The notes under the pieces were generated by a model that made no database searches, was not told the DNA's origin, and worked only from the letters and a program-made list of their open reading frames with translations. From Thermodesulfobacteriota bacterium (GTDB lineage: Bacteria > Desulfobacterota_D > UBA1144), in NCBI GenBank assembly GCA_036340075.1, contig JAYYZJ010000005.1, positions 1 through 64,000 on the forward strand: a stretch of 64,000 bases of DNA, in the 5' to 3' direction. Shown one piece after another: positions 14,607-60,701 of this stretch (position 1 is its first letter; the number at the start of each line of letters is the position of its first letter). Made by a program: the position numbers and the translations under genes.

Positions 14607-15303
14607 TGAGATGCTCCATTATATTTTCTAAAGAATTTATTTTTGTTGCTTCTATATTATTGATTGAATTATCGTCTCTTACAATTAATAAAGACTTCAT
14701 GCCTACCTCTAAACTTGCAAGATAATCCAGCTTGTAATTGTCTCCAACATGTATTGAATTCTCGGGTAATGACCCAACCTTTTCAAGAGATTTATAAAAT
14801 ATTCTCTTATCTGGCTTAGAAAAGCCTGATTCTGAAGATATTGTAAAGGAATCAATGTTTTCAGTAATTTTCAATTTCTCACAGACTTTATATATTCGAG
14901 AATCAAAATTTGAAGTAATTATTACTTTGTAACCCATTTTCTTTAATTTTTTTAATGCGGGTAAAGTATCTGGATATATCTCCCAAGCTTCGGAAGAAAA
15001 ATAATCATATAAATCATCAAAATATTGATCAAAATCTTTGAACATGCCTAAATCAAGAAATATATCCTTAACTAATACATACCACCAATTCTTTTCTGCA
15101 TTAAATAAATCTTCACCTTGTAATGAAGTAAAATGTAACCCTTTTTTTGATGAAAAATGTTTTTTAAAAGTAGTTGATATTTCTTCTGGATTGTATTGAT
15201 TTGTATAATTTTTGAGTATTTTTGAATAAGCCGCGCCTAATCCATCTTTTATAAAAAATAGAGTATCAGCTGCATCTAGTGATATAGTATTATATTTAAT
15301 CAT
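14596..15303 (-). CDS. HAD-IA family hydrolase (REG-2-like)
   Basis: LDAADTL, SNFD, KPDKRIF and HVGDN motifs. ATGA overlap with metH. Confidence 0.85.
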
Positions 15304-18300
15304 TCAACTAAATTACTTTGCAATAAGCTTTTTAATTTATCTCTTGAATATGTTTTATTTTCGCAATACAAGCTAAATTGCTCCTGATTTATCTTTCCTA
15401 GATTAAAATATTTAGATTCGGGATGAAAGAAATAAAGTCCACATATTGAAGACGGCGGGTTTATAGCAAAATTCTCAGTTAGAGAAACATTAATATTCTC
15501 CTCAACTTTTAGAAGATTCCATACCTTTAATTTTTCTGAATGATCAGGACATGAAGGATAACCATGCGCTGGCCTACTTCCCTTATACTTTTCTTTTATC
15601 AATTCATCTATACTTAAATTGCTATCATCGCCATTTTTCTCTCTTATCTTTTTATGTAAATACTCTGCACAACCTTCAGCAATCCTATCAGCAAGAGCTT
15701 TAATCAATATTGATCTATATTCGTCTCCTTTTTTATTAAAAGTCTCTGCATATTCATCAATCTCATAACCAGAGGAAACAACAAATGCGCCTAAAACATC
15801 TTTATGAGTTTTTTCTGGAGATATAAAATCAGATAGAGAATAATAATGCTCTCCTGTAGTTTCTTTCTTAACTTGTTGTCTCAAAAAATAGAACGTCTCT
15901 AATTTATTAAGAAAATTTTTATCGTAGATTTCAATACTTTCATCAATGCTAATCGCATTCCAAACTTGAGTTACTCCTTTTGGTTTAACAATATTTTCGC
16001 CAAGCATCGTTTTCAGCATAATTTGAGCATCATTAAACAAACTCTCAGCTTGTTCTCCATATTTGTTATTCTTAAAAATTCTGGGGTATACACCCTTAAG
16101 CCCCCAAACCCAAAAAAATGGTGACCAATCGAAATAATCAATAATTTCTTTTAAATTAAAATTCCATACGTTTAAACTAAAATCGTCTGTCTTGTTATTA
16201 ATTAATGAAAAATCCGGAACATACTTCTTATCTCTAGCCTCATTCATTGAAACAAATTTAATATCTTTATCTTTTTTGTATTTTTTAGCATAATCTTTTT
16301 GTTGTTTAACTAAGTCTTTTTTATATTCTTTAGATGTTTCTTTATTTAACAAATCCCTACAAACTCCTACTACTAAAGAAGCGTCTGCCACATGAGCTAC
16401 AACTTCCTTTTTATATTCAGGTGCAATTTTAATTGATGTATGAGCTTTACTAGTTGTAGCTCCTCCTATGAGGACGGGAACTTTTAAATTATTTTTATCA
16501 AATTCTTTTACATTTGATATCATCTCTTCTAATGAAGGGGTTATTAATCCACTCAATCCAATAATATCTGGTTTGAATTCTTTTGATTTTTCAATAATTT
16601 CACTGCACGGGACCATAACACCAAGATCCAATACTTCGTATCCATTACACCTTGCTACAACAGATACTATATTCTTTCCAATATCATGCACATCGCCTTT
16701 TACAGTAGCAATAAGAATTTTTCCCGCCGAAGTTGCGTTAGCTTTTTCTTTTTCCATAAAAGGCTCAAGATAATTAACAGCCTTTTTCATAACTCTTGCA
16801 CTTTTAACTACCTGAGGCAGAAACATTTTTCCTTCTCCAAAGAGTTCTCCAACTATTTTCATTCCATCCATCAATGGTCCTTCTATTACATCTAAAGGAG
16901 ATGGATACTTAATACGAGCTAATTCAGCATCCTCTTCTATTTTTGTCGAAATACCCTTGATTATTTGATGAGAAATTCTCTCTTCTAAATCATAATTTAA
17001 CCATTCATCTTGATTCTTTTTAACTTCATTTGAAGATGCAATATTATTTGCAGAATCAATTAATATATCCGTAGCATTTTCAGACCTGTCGAATATTACA
17101 TCTTCGACTTTCTTTAACAATTCTCTATCTATTTCTTCGTAAATCTCAAGCATTCCGGCATTAATGATTGCCATATCTAGACCATTATTTATTGCATGAT
17201 ATAAAAATGATGAATGCATTACTTCTCTAACCTTATTATTTCCACGGAAGGCAAAAGATAAATTACTTATCCCACCACTAGTTAACGAGCCGGGACACGA
17301 ATCTTTAATCTTTTTTATTGACTCTAAAAAATTAACTGCGTATTTTTTATGTTCGTCAATTCCTGTAGCTATTGTAAGAATATTTGAATCAAAAATAATA
17401 TCTTCTGGATTAAAACCAACTTTGCTTACTAAGATATCGTATGCTCTTTTGCAGATTTTTACTCTATCCTCTATTTCTGTAGCCTGTCCATCTTCATCAA
17501 AAGCCATAACAACAACAGAAGCACCATAATCTAAAATTTTCTTTGCTTGATCAATAAATACTTGCTCGCCTTCTTTAAGACTTATTGAATTCACAATCCC
17601 TCTTCCTTGAATACATTTTAGTCCTGCCTCTATAACAGACCATTTTGAGCTATCAATCATTATAGGAACTTTTGCAATATCCGGGTCTGAAGCTATTAAA
17701 TTCAAGAATTTAGTCATACATTCTTCACTATTTAACATTCCCTCATCAAAATTAACATCTATAATATGTGCTCCATTTTCAACCTGTTGTTTTGCGACTT
17801 CTAACGCTTCCTCGTAATTTTCTTCTTTTATTAGTCGTGCAAATTTAGGAGAACCAGTAACATTCGTTCTTTCTCCGACTATCAGAAATGTATTAGTATC
17901 ATCTTTAATTAAGTGTTCAAGCCCACTAAAAGATGATTGTCTTTCTAAAGGTATACTTTTCCTTGGTTCCTTACCTTTTATAACTTTATTAATTGATGCT
18001 ATATGTTCTGGAGTAGTTCCACAGCATCCACCAACAAGATTTAATATCTTAGAATCAAAAAATTTTTCCAATTCTTTAGCTGTCATATCAGGTGTTTGGT
18101 CATAACCTGTTTCTGACAATGGATTTGGAAGTCCAGCATTAGGATAGCAAAAAGTCTTGCAATCTGAAATTTTAGATAATGTATTTGCAAAATCATAAAG
18201 AGACTCCGCCCCTAAACCACAATTCATTCCTACAGCATATGGATTGGCATGCCTTATAGATTCCCAAAATGCATTAATTGTTTGTCCTGACAAAGTTCTT

Positions 18301-18977
18301 CCAGATTTGTCTGAAAAAGTAACAGACAAGAAAACTGGAAAAAACAAACTAGTTTCATCGAATAATCTCTTAAGTGCAAAAATAGCTGCCTTAAGATTTA
18401 AGGTATCAAATGTAGTTTCTGGTAAAAATATATCTACTCCTGCTTCTAGTAAATATTTTGATTGTTCATAATAACTTTCCGCTAACTCATCAAAGTTAAT
18501 GTTACGATTACCTGGATCTTCAACATCAGGAGAAATGGAAGCAGTACGGTTTGTAGGGCCCAATGCACCGGCAATTAAAATCCTTTTACCATTTAGATTG
18601 TCTGAACATTCGTCTATTGCTTTTTTAGCTGCTTCAACTCCTTTTTTATTAATTTCAGCAACTTTACTTTCTAGCTTATAGTCTGATTGTGCTATGCTGG
18701 TACCATTAAAGGTATTAGTTTCGATAATATCCGCTCCAGCAAGGATATATTCTTTATGTATTTTCTTGATAATATCATTATTTGTCACATTAAGGATGTC
18801 GTTATTTCCTTTTAAATCTATAGAGTGTTTTTCAAGAATTTTCCCTCTGTAATCGTTTTCTTCTAATTTATATCTTTGGATCATAGTACCCATTGGGCCA
18901 TCCATCAATATAATTCTTTTTGACGATTCATCATCTAAATATTTAAAGACTTCACTTTTATTTTGATTACCATTCAT
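15300..18977 (-). CDS. metH: Cobalamin-dependent methionine synthase
   Basis: 1225 aa with all domains: homocysteine-binding (GMNC, GGCCGT), pterin-binding (GERTNVTGS), B12-binding ([15 protein letters not shown]) and the activation domain ([12 protein letters not shown]). Confidence 0.98.
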
Positions 18978-19773
18978 CTCTTAACTGCCTCAATAATTTA
19001 AATCTAACACTAATATCTTCATTAACGAATAAATCCTTATTCTTTAAATCATCTAAAAAAGAAAACTCATCGATTCTAAAAAATGGATTATGTTTTTTTT
19101 CAAAAGCTATATCTAAAACTGGTGACAAAAGATTCTCTTTGTAACCTTCCTTTAATTTAATTAGTTCATTACTGATTTTACTCTGTTTGGAAAATAAAGA
19201 TTCAATAAAGAGTATGTTGTTGTAAAGGTAATCATGTCCTACCAGAAGATTTAAATTATCAGGTAAATTTTTTAATTTGTGAAAAATAGTTCTAAACAAC
19301 ATAGTGACATCACCTCTAAATTTAGTATTACCTACTCCGCAATTGAATATTGTATCAGCACATAATAAATAATTATCAAACATTAGTGAAATATGTTCAG
19401 GGCAATGACCTGGTGTATGAAGAACCTTTATATTAAGTTTTCCTAATTTTATTAAATCGTTCTCAAAAATAGTGTCAAATTTAAATTCAAACAACTCCTT
19501 GCAAGAATCATGAGCTAATAATTTTAAATTATATTTATCCATAAAAAAAGAATTTTCTTTTATATGGTCAGGATGTGCATGTGTATTTATAATGTATCGG
19601 GGTTTCAATTTTTCTGTTTTAATAATATTTTCAACGATCTTTTTATCTAAGGGGTCGACAATAATACACTCATTACTTTCAATAGAAGATATGATATAAC
19701 CAATATTTCTATCACTTTCAGGGACTAAAAATCTATAAATAATACATGAATCACTATCAAGTTTTTCATACAT
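18967..19773 (-). CDS. gloB: Hydroxyacylglutathione hydrolase-like metallo-beta-lactamase-fold protein
   Basis: THAHPDH, HTPGH, ADTIF, GHDY, EKKHNPF and C-terminal LRQLRDEW. Confidence 0.75.
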
Positions 19774-19779
19774 TTTTTT

Positions 19780-19785
19780 ATTATA
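19780..19785 (-). promoter_or_regulatory. Probable -10 box of a leaderless promoter for the gloB-metH operon
   Basis: Perfect TATAAT on the minus strand, followed by six A residues and then the ATG at 19773. Confidence 0.55.
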
Positions 19786-19807
19786 CCCTCATAAAAAAGA
19801 GGAATTA

Positions 19808-19835
19808 TTGTTTTTTTTGTTTTTAGCATTATAAT
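19808..19835 (+). promoter_or_regulatory. Probable sigma70 promoter for the thrC-like operon
   Basis: TTGTTT (19808-19813), a 16 nt spacer, then TATAAT (19830-19835). Confidence 0.45.
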
Positions 19836-19850
19836 AACTTCGTCGTCATT

Positions 19851-19949
19851 TAACTCTAATTGCAGCGACTTTAAATAATTGCTAAACGGAGAAAGGGTAT
19901 TTTCTTTACCTTTCCTCTTCGAGTTACAAATTTTGTATATGTGAGAGGA
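19851..19949 (+). ncRNA. Candidate structured cis-regulatory leader (unclassified)
   Basis: TAACTC (19851-56) pairs with GAGTTA (19921-26) and encloses two hairpins. TCCTCT (19913-18) is also complementary to the SD AGAGGA (19944-49). Confidence 0.4.
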
Positions 19950-19954
19950 TTCAT

Positions 19955-21214
19955 ATGTCTAATAGTTTTGTAGTTAATCTAAGTTGTGCATCAAAGGATT
20001 GCGATCAAGAGTTCGAAAAAAAGGACTTATATGTATGTGATTTTTGTTTCGGCCCTCTTGAGCCACGTTATGATTATGAAAAAATCAAAGAAGAATTATC
20101 AATTGAAAAAATTCAATCAAGAAAAAAAAATATGTGGAGATACAAAGAACTGCTCCCACTTGATGAAGAACCTACTGTGGGACCAAATGTAGGATACACA
20201 CCATTAATTAAAGCTGATAATTTAGCAAAAGAACTTGGTGTAAAAGATTTATATATTAAAAACGATGGTGTAAATCATCCGTCCTTATCTTTCAAGGATA
20301 GGGTCGTAGCAGTAGCTTTATCAAAAGCTAAAGAACTTGGTTTTAAAACTGTAGGCTGTGCATCAACAGGCAACTTAGCAAACTCTGTTTCTGCTCAAGC
20401 TGCTGCTGCAGGTTTGGAAAGCTTTATTTTTATACCTTCGGACTTAGAAGAATCTAAAGTTATAGGAACAAGTGTGTATGGATCAAATGTAGTTGCCGTA
20501 GAAGGGAATTATGATGAAGTAAATAGATTATGCACAGAAATATTAGGAGATAAAAAATGGGGCTTTGTTAACATTAATTTACGAACTTATTATTCAGAAG
20601 GTTCAAAAACAGTAGCATATGAAATTATAGAGCAATTAGGATGGGTTGCTCCAAAACATATTGTTGTTTGTATGGCAAGTGGTTCTTTACTAACTAAGAT
20701 ACATAAAGGAGTTAAAGAATTCGAAAAAATCGGTTTGATTAATCCAAATGAAACAATGATATATGGGGCACAAGCCTCAGGCTGTTCTCCTATCTCAACG
20801 GCGGTTAAAAATGATTGGGAAACGTTTAAGCCCGTAAAACCAAAAACTATAGCTAAATCTCTCGCTATAGGGAACCCTGCGGACGGCTTAAATGCGATTA
20901 ACTTGTTAAAGTCTACGGAATCATACTCAGAAGATGCAACAGATGAAGAAATTGTAGAAGCAATGATTCTACTAGCTGAAACAGAAGGTATTTTTACCGA
21001 AACAGCAGGAGGAGTTACTCTTGCTTGCGCTAAAAAGTTAATCGAAAGTGGAAGAATACCAAAAGATGAATCAATCGTTCTTGTTATTACAGGTAATGGT
21101 TTAAAAACTCAAGATCCACTAGTGAATAAAATTTCAAAACCTTTTATAATAGAACCAAACATAGATTCATTTAAAGAGAAAGTTAAAGAAGGAGAACAAA
21201 ATGGCAAAAGTTAA
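19955..21214 (+). CDS. thrC: Threonine synthase-family PLP enzyme (possibly an O-phosphohomoserine sulfhydrylase, MetM-like)
   Basis: SFKDR (PLP lysine), ASTGN, EGSKT, TEGIF and ITGNGLK. N-terminal cysteine knuckle. Overlaps a sulfur-carrier gene. Confidence 0.85.
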   Translation: MSNSFVVNLSCASKDCDQEFEKKDLYVCDFCFGPLEPRYDYEKIKEELSIEKIQSRKKNMWRYKELLPLDEEPTVGPNVGYTPLIKADNLAKELGVKDLYIKNDGVNHPSLSFKDRVVAVALSKAKELGFKTVGCASTGNLANSVSAQAAAAGLESFIFIPSDLEESKVIGTSVYGSNVVAVEGNYDEVNRLCTEILGDKKWGFVNINLRTYYSEGSKTVAYEIIEQLGWVAPKHIVVCMASGSLLTKIHKGVKEFEKIGLINPNETMIYGAQASGCSPISTAVKNDWETFKPVKPKTIAKSLAIGNPADGLNAINLLKSTESYSEDATDEEIVEAMILLAETEGIFTETAGGVTLACAKKLIESGRIPKDESIVLVITGNGLKTQDPLVNKISKPFIIEPNIDSFKEKVKEGEQNGKS

Positions 21215-21476
21215 AATCCCGACACCACTTAGAAGACTAACTGGAGAAAAAGATGAAGTTGAAACATCTGCTGGAAATATATCTGATATGATTTTAGATT
21301 TAGAAAAACAATATCCAGGGATGCAAGAAAGACTATGCGATTCTGATGGGAGCATTAGAAAATTTATCAATATCTATGTAAACGAAGAAGATATAAGATT
21401 TATGGATGCAGAAAAGACTTCTATATCGAATGAAGATACAGTCTCCATAATTCCTGCTATTGCTGGTGGTATTTAA
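21201..21476 (+). CDS. MoaD/ThiS/CysO family ubiquitin-like sulfur carrier
   Basis: [24 protein letters not shown] and C-terminal [18 protein letters not shown] upstream. Confidence 0.92.
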
Positions 21477-59402: not shown

Positions 59403-60032
59403 CTATTTATCTAGTTTTAATCTTAGGTCGAAAATGGAAAGATACAAGAAAAAGAAACCAGCTAATGTAACAAGCAATGTGTCCATCATTTCTGGCGAAA
59501 TTCCTCCTCCCTCTCCACCAAAGACAACAGGAGAAATTCCTCTCATTACTCGAACTGAAATATAAACTATTGGCAAATCTATAAAACTTATTATTGCAAA
59601 AACTGCTGCATATCTAGGCACTCCTGCGCTAGTAGAAAGCTTATGAAATACAAGATAAGAAGAATACAAAAGCAATAGAATAAAAGTAGTAGTTAATTGA
59701 GGATCCCAAGTCCACCATGTCCCCCAAATTGGTTTCGCCCAAAACATTCCTGAAATTATTGTTAAAAGAGTGAAAACTACTCCTATTTCTCCATTTACAT
59801 ATGCATACACAGAATTGATTTTTTTGTTATCAACAAGAAACTTAATTGAAAAAAACAAATTCATTATAAAAGCGATTGTGAAAACTAGTACATATGCCAT
59901 ATGAAAATAAAATATTCTTTGTACGTCTCCCATAACGATTTCTCGTGGTGCATATATAAAAATCATATAAAGACTTATTGATATTAAAATTAGAGAGATT
60001 GTTGGCGAGAATTTGAATAATATTTTAAGCAT
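59403..60032 (-). CDS. ccmC: Heme exporter CcmC
   Basis: QRIFYFH and the WWD domain WAKPIWGTWWTWDP. Confidence 0.95.
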   Translation of the reverse strand: MLKILFKFSPTISLILISISLYMIFIYAPREIVMGDVQRIFYFHMAYVLVFTIAFIMNLFFSIKFLVDNKKINSVYAYVNGEIGVVFTLLTIISGMFWAKPIWGTWWTWDPQLTTTFILLLLYSSYLVFHKLSTSAGVPRYAAVFAIISFIDLPIVYISVRVMRGISPVVFGGEGGGISPEMMDTLLVTLAGFFFLYLSIFDLRLKLDK

Positions 60033-60035
60033 AAA

Positions 60036-60701
60036 TCACCTTCTTAAAGAATAACTAAAGAGTATTGGACACACAGCCAAGAGAAGTATATCGAATGCTA
60101 TAAGTACTTGCAAAGAAAATGTATTAACAAAATTAATTAAATCTAGAATATTTATTTCAGACAAGCAATTATAGGACAGTACCAAAAAGGGAATAATTAA
60201 AGGATAAATCATAATCAACATAAACTGTCCTTCGGATCTAATCCGCTCCAACATTAAAGAAAAAGTAGTGAGTATTATCGAGAGTCCCAATGAAAATGAA
60301 ATAGAAAAAATAATAAAACTAATTACATTGTTAAAGAAAAAGTCTCCCAATAAAAATATAAACATTACAAGAGCCACAATTAGTATTAAAAAATTAAGTA
60401 AAAATGTAAATAATATTTTTGATAAACATAGTACAGATAAATCGAAAGGTATATTGATAAGAATTAGCTCACCCTGCGAAGTAACTTCTTGTCTCGATAT
60501 CCTTTGATTTGTTATTAAGTTAATAATTAATATAGTAAGAAAAAACAAATGAACAGGGTTTTGTTCACCAATAAAAACAAAAAACATAAGTGATACAGCA
60601 GGAGCTAAAATTAAAAAATAAATTATATTTAATTTCTCTCTAAACTCTGACACTAAATCTTTCCATAGAATTAAGTTAACAATTGATAAATATTTTCTCA
60701 T
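60036..60701 (-). CDS. ccmB: Heme exporter CcmB
   Basis: WKDLVSE and YPLIIP in a highly hydrophobic protein between ccmA and ccmC. Confidence 0.85.
   Translation of the reverse strand: MRKYLSIVNLILWKDLVSEFREKLNIIYFLILAPAVSLMFFVFIGEQNPVHLFFLTILIINLITNQRISRQEVTSQGELILINIPFDLSVLCLSKILFTFLLNFLILIVALVMFIFLLGDFFFNNVISFIIFSISFSLGLSIILTTFSLMLERIRSEGQFMLIMIYPLIIPFLVLSYNCLSEINILDLINFVNTFSLQVLIAFDILLLAVCPILFSYSLRR

Follow-up and report, generated by a model that had tools for sequence, protein, structure and literature searches.

Riboswitches for S-adenosylmethionine (SAM) that belong to class SAM-II (RF00521, SAM_alpha) were described from alpha-proteobacteria, and the binding site of SAM-V (RF01826), which precedes metY and bhmT of 'Ca. 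Pelagibacter ubique', is known from a crystallised RNA, as set out in PMC6061858. A SAM riboswitch also lies upstream of S. albulus metM (PMC12172450), a gene of the MetM/MetO pathway of Hasebe et al. 2024, as cited in PMC13759103 and PMC12172450; MetM is a ThrC homologue, and its cyanobacterial homologues adjoin a metO-like gene (PMC12172450). Here we describe the leader of a metM/metO-like operon in the window, i.e. the whole stretch of 64,000 nt that was analysed (positions 1 to 64,000 of contig JAYYZJ010000005.1, assembly GCA_036340075.1) from a Thermodesulfobacteriota bacterium of lineage UBA1144. With a probability of about 0.7, the element at 19842-19927 is a SAM riboswitch in which a divergent SAM-II-class aptamer is followed by a lineage-specific platform with a proposed translational OFF switch. 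An earlier note on this DNA had presented the leader as an unclassified, possibly new RNA motif folding as a three-way junction (P1, UAACUC/GAGUUA; P2, AGCGA/TTGCT; P3, a long hairpin), had proposed a translational switch possibly sensing SAM, and had named an Rfam scan, covariation and structural conservation in relatives as ways to judge it. Direct reading of the sequence places all its strings where they had been reported, namely TATAAT, TAACTC, GAGTTA, AGCGA (19864-68), TTGCT (19879-83), TCCTCT (19913-18) and AGAGGA, and its leader of about 110 nt measures 113 nt from ~19842 to the ATG. That note is partly confirmed: the observation is real and correctly placed, while the claim of novelty is mostly removed, leaving a modestly interesting variant.

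Searching the whole window with Rfam at gathering thresholds returned 0 matches. A permissive scan of 19700-20050 revealed that 19832-19905 matches positions 1-79 of the SAM-II model RF00521 (27.9 bits, E-value of 1.6e-4), and this match is unique in the 0.96-Mb genome (E-value of 1.1e-4 genome-wide). The Rfam check is therefore empty at curated thresholds and positive for SAM-II likeness in the permissive local scan. The 5' half (19842-19891) aligns end to end with RF00521 and is thus not an unclassified motif; the comparison in the earlier note had been limited to SAM-I, SAM-IV, Moco and TPP. The parts of this 5' half are as follows:

19842..19846, plus strand: 5' strand of SAM-II P1, GUCGU, pairing with 19865-19869 in the cmscan alignment to RF00521
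19847..19852, plus strand: third strand (L1), CAUUUA, its invariant AUUU aligned to the conserved AUUU of the model
19851..19856, plus strand: UAACUC, overlapping the end of the third strand and the linker, invariant (48/48), partner of GAGUUA 19921-26
19854..19857, plus strand: linker CUCU, the 5' strand of the proximal P2a, partner of GGAG 19888-91 in the pseudoknot
19859..19863, plus strand: descending strand of P2b, A-UUGC, with UUGC invariant and aligned to UUGCA of the model
19865..19869, plus strand: 3' strand of SAM-II P1, GCGAC (RF00521 alignment and leader alignment)
19870..19880, plus strand: A-rich L3 (UUUAAAUAAUU), stemless, the expected minor-groove strand, with AAA-AA aligned to conserved model positions
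19881..19886, plus strand: ascending strand of P2b, GCUAAA (leader alignment)

The conserved letters of RF00521, AUUU, UUGCA, UUAAA-AA and GCUAAA, are all matched by the leader, and the SAM-II core (AUUU, UUGCA, AAA-AA, GCUAAA) is invariant or nearly so across 34 leaders. In its last segment the first five letters, GCUAA, never vary, and the sixth is A in 45/48 and G in 3/48 distinct sequences (31 vs 3 of the 34 unique leaders). The SAM-II long-loop model RF01726 scores 17.5 bits (E-value of 0.73), under its cut-off of 44, and the SAM_V model RF01826 has no match at the leader, whose L3 lacks a stem. The stemless L3 and the SAM_V mismatch together indicate an aptamer of SAM-II type rather than SAM-V type. 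The sole SAM_V match of the genome, at 59998-60065 (19.6 bits, E-value of 0.5), lies inside the minus-strand coding open reading frames (ORFs) 59403-60032 and 60036-60701 and was rejected as a chance match.

From the solved SAM-V fold, with residue roles as given in PMC6061858, we infer which leader residues would contact the ligand. U19849-51 would correspond to the third-strand residues U8-U10, located in the major-groove triplex next to the SAM sulfonium, U10 taking part in a base triple and in the Mg2+ site that holds the SAM carboxylate. A19859 would be the counterpart of A18, while U19860, U19861 and G19862 would represent U19, U20 and G21, respectively. On the ascending strand, U19883 would take the place of U47, the pairing partner of the SAM adenine, A19884 and A19885 those of A48 and A49, whose triples flank the sulfonium, and A19886 that of A50, the binder of the SAM amino-acid end. 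Triple U20:A48.U9 maps to U19861:A19884.U19850, and A50:A18 to A19886:A19859. The leaders have equivalents of the residues that touch SAM, with almost no variation in them, and between the P1 start and G21 the spacing is the same as in the crystallised SAM-V RNA. In P2b, UUGC 19860-63 complements GC-AA within GCUAAA and leaves out U19883, as in the solved fold; its four pairs (U19860-A19885, U19861-A19884, G19862-C19882 and C19863-G19881, with A19859 opposite A19886) never vary. The position of the linker CUCU matches P2a of SAM-II and SAM-V (PMC6061858).

The remainder of the element and the ribosome-binding site comprise:

19888..19918, plus strand: P3 hairpin, with a GGAG/CUCU base, a 1x1 mismatch of A19892 opposite C19914, a 7-bp upper stem and a 7-nt loop
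19913..19919, plus strand: anti-Shine-Dalgarno (anti-SD) UCCUCUU, at the base of P3 on its 3' side, the complement of GAGAGGA 19943-49 in the SD region
19921..19927, plus strand: GAGUUAC, the putative 'decoy' element, partner of UAACUC 19851-56 and end of the 86-nt conserved element
19944..19949, plus strand: Shine-Dalgarno (SD) AGAGGA, 5 nt before the ATG (19955-57), a GGAG-type SD being kept in the alignment

Helices were counted on alignment A3 of 59 leaders, 48 of them distinct, fitted to a covariance model (R1) built from 34 unique leaders. As a single sequence, the leader folds unremarkably (minimum free energy of -23.5 kcal/mol, z = -1.31, with 23/200 shuffles as good). P3 is paired in 97.5% of cells and displays 5 pairs changed on both sides in 45 cells, a result reached by 0/500 shuffles, with 36-51% pairing in slid controls. 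RNAfold of the P3 segment alone returned a hairpin in 34/34 leaders: the RGRG:CUCU base measures 3-4 bp, a 1x1 mismatch facing an invariant C is conserved, and the upper stem varies. The P3 of the earlier note, formed by GGAGAAAGGGTA (19888-99) and TACCTTTCCTCT (19907-18) over 12 positions, of which one is an A-C mismatch and two are G-U pairs, is thus a real hairpin. Its P1, here termed the distal helix (UAACUC:GAGUUA), is paired in 100% of cells, the only variants being changes from U-A to U-G in 1 and 3 of the 48 sequences. Of the 18 single substitutions that GAGUUA could undergo, just 2 keep the pairing, and exactly those two are seen, a pattern that lends modest support to the distal helix.

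The SAM-II P1 (5 bp) is paired in 100% of the distinct sequences, with a closing pair that is U-G in 27 and U-A in 21, and shows one-sided change only. The P2 of the earlier note is paired in 80.4% of cells, its G-C pair being broken in 21/48 and its A-U pair in 26/48. The G-to-A change at 19865, which converts the SAM-II closing pair to the better U-A, breaks that same G-C pair, thus favouring SAM-II P1 over the earlier P2. In the proximal P2a, where CUCU faces GGAG, AGAG or AGGG, 98.7% of cells are complementary and all changes are one-sided; P2b is paired in all cells. Covariation therefore bears out P3, contradicts the earlier P2 and leaves the earlier P1 fully paired with one-sided variants. 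The three-way junction as a ligand-binding fold is not confirmed, its P2 clashing with SAM-II P1; its P1 and P3 are conserved, yet most likely belong to the expression platform, as a ligand-free alternative fold, and not to the ligand pocket.

Structural conservation in relatives holds, the element being shared by the family leaders. Sub-threshold RF00521 matches occur in 18/18 same-family genomes (~1 Mb each; up to 5 per genome in one genus) and, both of them weak, in 2/22 other genomes of the class. R1 finds one copy in this genome, at 19842-19927 (86 nt, 105.1 bits), and in a 120-genome sample of the phylum it matches 18/18 family genomes and 0/101 others. An exact 22-nt core pattern retrieved 35 loci from a species-representative genome collection, all in metagenome-assembled genomes (MAGs) or single-cell amplified genomes (SAGs) labelled, e.g., Candidatus Dadabacteria UBA1144, Deltaproteobacteria TMED58 or NAT/SAT/SP bins, or in evidently mislabelled bins. 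From these labels, we take the host lineage to be streamlined marine Dadabacteria. None of the papers listed in literature searches connected SAM-II with these taxa. Conservation is far higher in the aptamer core than in the spacer beside it, in the P3 loop or in the coding DNA, MetM-like proteins being 74-87% identical.

Gene context was examined at 30 loci of the 38 R1 matches. The element lies ~110 nt 5' of a MetM-like gene, on the same strand, in 18/19 genomes, the exception being a genome that is 77% complete. In two sister genera extra copies precede rhodanese/3-mercaptopyruvate-sulfurtransferase-like and CysI-like genes, and one sister-genus copy precedes a distant methanethiol-oxidase-like gene. 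Judged by their predicted products, the targets of the element are a sulfur and methionine regulon, as expected of a SAM sensor.

At these sister-genus copies (L025:1620-1709, plus strand; L026-L031, L045 and L047), the SD serves a Cys-rich ORF of 21-29 codons, ending for instance in ...DTCCCNFSNLCCCNYK or ...APCCCCCN, which is followed by a spacer of ~70-170 nt and by the SD of the gene itself. In this arrangement a SAM riboswitch would seem to gate a leader peptide of Cys codons, amounting to two-signal control. The Cys-Asn codons (UGUAACU) of these leader ORFs also complement GAGUUAC. In the L025 region after the riboswitch, folding gave no clear attenuator (z = -1.93) and no terminator. 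Two further loci, L078 and L167, keep P1, the third strand and UUGCA, lack GCUAAA, P3 and GAGUUAC, and are followed by a small ORF; this copy looks like a decayed riboswitch.

A metagenome scan for relatives outside the family, in which P1, AUUU and UUGCA were kept constant and any 8-nt linker was allowed, gave at least 120 loci, with 112 unique among the matches listed. Many of the listed matches are classical SAM-II-like leaders with terminators, tandem aptamers and linker-tail complements, e.g. AGGTTCAC with GCTAAAAGAACC. When 20 of the loci were tested in Rfam, four first aptamers reached the RF00521 cut-off (39.0, 38.2, 36.9 and 36.0 bits, against 36) and one second aptamer passed RF01726 (45.8 bits, against 44). 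As these Rfam-positive relatives have the same P1, L1 and P2b, the window RNA falls narrowly short of the curated family. A close core whose sole difference is its linker (AACTCAAC) is followed by a hairpin and U-run, then GGGTTGA and often a second aptamer; in the named genome collection (one genome per species) this type has 3 loci, in a Dadabacteria-type MAG and a Marinimicrobia SAG. An assignment of these relatives to SAR11 SAM-II was dropped, since the exact-pattern scan gave only Dadabacteria-type and Marinimicrobia loci. Some close relatives (L190, L132 and L215 types) carry no distal element, which argues that this element is part of expression platforms and not of the aptamer.

Tandem arrangements were seen among these relatives. 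L241 (a Marinimicrobia SAG, in both of its matches), L144, L216, L228, L176, L190, L132 and L215 display a near-identical core, a terminator-like hairpin and a second aptamer of SAM-II long-loop type, an order that recalls, here in another phylum, the SAM-II/SAM-V tandem of Pelagibacter. In L138, L155, L183, L236, L238 and similar loci, on GC-richer contigs, SAM-II-like aptamers stand back to back without a spacer, the second P1 beginning inside the tail of the first aptamer.

In the proposed mechanism, the first 50 nt (19842-19891) would fold as an H-type pseudoknot aptamer of the SAM-II class, with P1, a U-rich third strand, P2b and a short P2a, and the next 36 nt would form a lineage-specific expression platform of P3, with its anti-SD base, and GAGUUAC. 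The purine tracts GGAG, GAGUUA and SD would have alternative partners in the pyrimidine tracts of the linker, (UAA)CUCU, and of the anti-SD, UCCUCUU. Without SAM, UAACUC 19851-56 would pair with GAGUUA and P3 would close to its base, locking the anti-SD in P3, so that the SD at 19944-49 would be free and the metM/metO-like operon translated (ON). With SAM, the third strand and linker would be captured in the triplex and pseudoknot, GGAG would leave the base of P3, and the freed UCCUCUU would pair with the SD, turning translation off. The junction-like fold of the earlier note, i.e. the distal helix plus full P3, would then represent the SAM-free ON state. The platform thus probably hides the ribosome-binding site when SAM is plentiful. 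The functional guess of the earlier note, a translational switch sensing SAM, holds as the best-supported reading of the SAM-II likeness, conservation, P3 covariation and genetic context; from these we infer SAM binding, the identity of the bound fold and control at the level of translation.

Both alternative pairings are available in the leaders. The 34 leaders were folded under two constraint sets, one holding the aptamer and RGRG (GGAG in the window), the other enforcing UAACUC:GAGUUA. With the aptamer and RGRG held, at least 3 SD nucleotides pair with the anti-SD in 34/34 leaders, in agreement with the SD complementarity described earlier. With the distal helix enforced, P3 forms to its base and at most 1 SD nucleotide is paired in 23/34. 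Before pseudoknot and ligand terms are counted, the nested ON fold is favoured over the OFF fold by a mean of 3.5 kcal/mol (range -8.5 to +0.7), the direction expected of a ligand-driven OFF switch. Isolated duplex energies are -2.3 kcal/mol for the pseudoknot helices, -4.3 kcal/mol for the distal helix and -8.5 kcal/mol for the anti-SD:SD duplex of the window; with pseudoknot helices this weak relative to the other two duplexes, ligand energy could tip the balance. U19851 and A19852, which correspond to triplex and Mg2+ site residues, are taken up by the distal helix, and this helix should therefore compete with the bound fold. On the strength of this clash, the distal helix with full P3 was assigned to the SAM-free ON state, and the pseudoknot with anti-SD:SD to the SAM-bound OFF state.

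Several observations weigh against this switch and its SAM-II identity. The score of 27.9 bits is under the RF00521 gathering cut-off of 36, an operational rather than structural threshold, and 0/19 family genomes pass it, the best reaching 35.8 bits. Across the 48 distinct sequences, P1, P2a and P2b are invariant or change on one side only, and the pseudoknot thus rests on SAM-II homology and not on covariation. The proximal CUCU:GGAG and distal UAACUC:GAGUUA pairings are both ~100% conserved as candidates for the bound-state P2a. Complementarity of linker and tail among 41 metagenomic linker types is not significant in what is a crude test (186/1000 and 61/1000 shuffles reach the observed values), and an unrestricted version in the metagenomic relatives gave a mean helix of 3.37 vs 3.35; by eye, one case among the xxxTCAAC linker types is compensatory (CUC:GAG to UUC:GAA) and one is disruptive (GUC vs GAA). 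Only 16/34 leaders leave the SD fully free when in the ON fold. For the window leader itself, the OFF-like and ON nested folds are isoenergetic without ligand (-21.6 vs -21.0), and the unconstrained minimum-free-energy fold already pairs the SD. The window leader thus gives no evident sign of a switch driven by thermodynamics only, and control would need to be kinetic and co-transcriptional, with P3 and the distal helix in place before transcription reaches the SD.

In an unlikely arrangement of the same aptamer, the distal UAACUC:GAGUUA would be the bound-state P2a and P3 would be inserted between P2b and P2a as a three-way junction inside the pseudoknot, with control exerted otherwise, e.g. 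through mRNA stability, Rho or pairing of GAGUUAC with the coding start. The topology would be consistent, the loop's 5' portion being joined to the segment that lies farthest 3', and the helix is 6 bp long, fully conserved with only two variants, both of the U-G-keeping kind, and stabler as an isolated duplex than the proximal pseudoknot helices; complements of GAGUUAC shortly past the ATG (in 7 leaders GTAACTT at +9, in 3 TAACTC or TGACTC at +5) also fit. However, this helix would consume U19851 and A19852, the U10 and G11 equivalents needed for the triples and the SAM-bound Mg2+ (PMC6061858), and together with an intact P3 it would leave the SD mostly free, so that SAM would turn a methionine operon on, which is the wrong sign. 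The close metagenomic relatives of L190, L132 and L215 types do without the distal element, and the complement in the window's own coding start is only the weak, G-U-rich TAGTTT. Action of a SAM-II riboswitch mainly on transcription or mRNA fate, by premature termination, Rho or RNase access rather than at translation initiation, is improbable here. Most SAM-II riboswitches are transcriptional (PMC6061858), metagenomic and Marinimicrobia relatives place a hairpin and U-run after the same core, and the S. meliloti metA SAM-II affects RNA stability as well as translation (according to PMC9373788), whereas 19500-20100 holds 0 terminator-like sites, P3 is followed directly by CGAGUUACAAAUUUUG and not by a U-tract, and the invariant pyrimidine strand of P3 complements the SD in 34/34 leaders.

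Two further explanations depart from SAM-II altogether. The element could be no metabolite sensor at all but a protein-binding site, a small-RNA target or promoter and untranslated-region sequence conserved in one family; the 48 distinct sequences do come from a single small-genome family and related metagenomic contigs, and shared ancestry could explain part of the conservation. This is very improbable given that the core is so much more conserved than the spacer, the P3 loop and the coding DNA of the 74-87% identical MetM-like proteins, that its copies in sister genera stand in front of four genes of sulfur and methionine metabolism unrelated to one another, and that the SAM-II model is matched end to end. 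Hardly credible, finally, is a new riboswitch class in which the three-way junction P1/P2/P3 senses SAM, methionine or another sulfur metabolite. Such a junction evaluates to -17.1 kcal/mol, two of its helices are conserved and no Rfam family scores above its cut-off, but the P2 it requires is broken in 21/48 and 26/48 sequences, the most conserved nucleotides are those of the SAM-II core and not of the junction, and relatives with the same core and no P3/GAGUUA module are Rfam-positive SAM-II. The SAM-II-class aptamer with a proposed translational OFF platform is the preferred explanation.

GAGUUAC finds a second complement inside the MetM-like coding region in several genera, GTAACTT at +9, codons 4-5 (L004, L005, L034, L036, L038, L039 and L043), or TAACTC or TGACTC at +5, codons 2-4 (L046, L049 and L051); TAGTTT of the window lies at 19963-19968. 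Either a second helix of the sequestering kind or coincidence in AT-rich DNA could account for these complements.

The two genes downstream of the leader are:

19955..21214, plus strand: pyridoxal-phosphate (PLP) enzyme of the ThrC family with a Cys-rich N-terminal segment (Pfam PALP, 234 bits; TIGR00260, 282.5 bits)
21201..21476, plus strand: sulfur-carrier protein of the ThiS/MoaD family, MetO-like, with the C-terminus ...AGGI (Pfam ThiS, 56.8 bits; translation)

The two reading frames share 14 nt, the ThiS-like gene beginning before the ThrC-like gene ends. The product of 19955-21214 is a probable MetM-like homocysteine synthase, and its full-length relatives include cyanobacterial proteins with 54-58% identity. 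A second ThrC homologue, 31% identical, is encoded on another contig (C12:53658-54671) and is presumably the housekeeping threonine synthase, making the riboswitch-linked gene a paralogue. The single residue after GG in the ThiS-like C-terminus suggests removal by a protease before thiocarboxylation or use.

The leader is housed in the 181-nt gap between a minus-strand ORF for an MBL-fold hydrolase (18967-19773) and the plus-strand ORF at 19955-21214. Upstream of the element, two promoter-like hexamers were identified:

19808..19813, plus strand: -35-like TTGTTT, 16 nt 5' of the -10 box (read in the sequence)
19830..19835, plus strand: -10 box TATAAT (read in the sequence)

In 35/36 unique family leaders a TAnnnT hexamer stops 5-7 nt short of the element's first G, the 36th having an N in the hexamer, and TTG occurs at the -35-equivalent distance in 33/36. 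A simple promoter scan did not list the window site, its -35 being under the scan threshold; the promoter of sister locus L025 scores 10/12, with an extended TG. The transcript is predicted to start at ~G19842. A search of marine metatranscriptomes for evidence of the transcription start revealed two runs with 0.23 and 0.17 of the sampled words, whose contigs map only to 19566-19767, 20111-20354 and 20737-21003, outside the leader, and count neither for nor against it; two further runs gave no contigs on the stretch. Divergently from the same gap run MetH (1225 aa) and the MBL-fold, glyoxalase-II-like hydrolase (15300-19773, minus strand), overlapping by 11 nt. No promoter-like site was found for either in the 181-nt gap, and the hydrolase start codon has no obvious SD.

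Compared with SAM-II RF00521, the leader shares the predicted H-type pseudoknot layout, the AUUU third strand, UUGCA, a stemless A-rich L3, GCUAAA, a short putative P2a directly after it and a position upstream of a methionine-synthesis gene (metX/metA in the described type). It differs in this putative P2a, which is only 4 bp, AU/GU-rich and has a 3' strand doubling as the base of a conserved hairpin, in its SD, located ~55 nt 3' of the aptamer instead of inside P2a, in the added conserved 36-nt hairpin/anti-SD/decoy module, and in its marine Dadabacteria-type host, in contrast to the alpha-proteobacteria of PMC6061858. With SAM-V it has in common the binding-site nucleotides and their numbering in the 5' half (U8-U10, A18-G21), including the A at position A18 (PMC6061858). 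SAM-V exerts translational OFF control in a small marine genome (PMC6061858), as would the window RNA. In contrast to SAM-V, L3 of the window has no P3 stem-loop, and where the SAM-V SD lies directly in a 2-bp P2a, the signal in the window would need a hairpin relay. The S. meliloti metA SAM-II likewise has an SD-like 3' end far from the start codon used, 74 nt as against 64 nt in the window (GGAG to ATG); there, however, the riboswitch SD is required as a standby site and a terminator lies in between, as described in PMC9373788, whereas the window has a separate canonical SD 5 nt before the ATG and its hairpin anti-SD is the likely relay.

The leader is thus probably not a new RNA class, but a divergent member of SAM-II joined to a lineage-specific hairpin module. 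A bolder reading, tentative and somewhat doubtful, would make it a distinct SAM-II sub-class, in which a minimal triplex pseudoknot relays its signal over ~55 nt by three-way strand exchange with GAGUUAC as decoy, or in which the P3/distal junction sits inside the pseudoknot, the module being shared with Marinimicrobia. In the strand-exchange version, two identical CUCU tracts, in the aptamer linker and the P3 base, would be contested by the purine tracts GGAG, GAGUUA and SD; as a decoy, the conserved GAGUUAC would hold the third strand of the aptamer when SAM is absent. If true, the near-identical core and module in Dadabacteria-type and Marinimicrobia genomes would point to spread of the riboswitch between phyla. 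The hairpin/anti-SD/decoy module would offer a compact example of a very small pseudoknot aptamer controlling a distant ribosome-binding site.

The locus would also extend the SAM-II class to streamlined marine Dadabacteria-labelled genomes, and probably to Marinimicrobia. Rfam thresholds miss the SAM riboswitches of this whole lineage, 0/19 genomes passing while 19/19 carry the element. The closest genetic parallel is the metM-metO arrangement of Streptomyces (PMC13759103 and PMC12172450), where a ThrC-homologue gene is likewise followed by a ThiS-family gene behind a SAM riboswitch leader, putative in the window. By this precedent, a metM/metO-like operon under a SAM riboswitch is an already known pairing in another phylum; here it would link SAM-II to the recently described MetM/MetO homocysteine route, and the SAM-II leader provides independent regulatory support for the ThrC paralogue being a methionine-pathway enzyme and not a threonine synthase.

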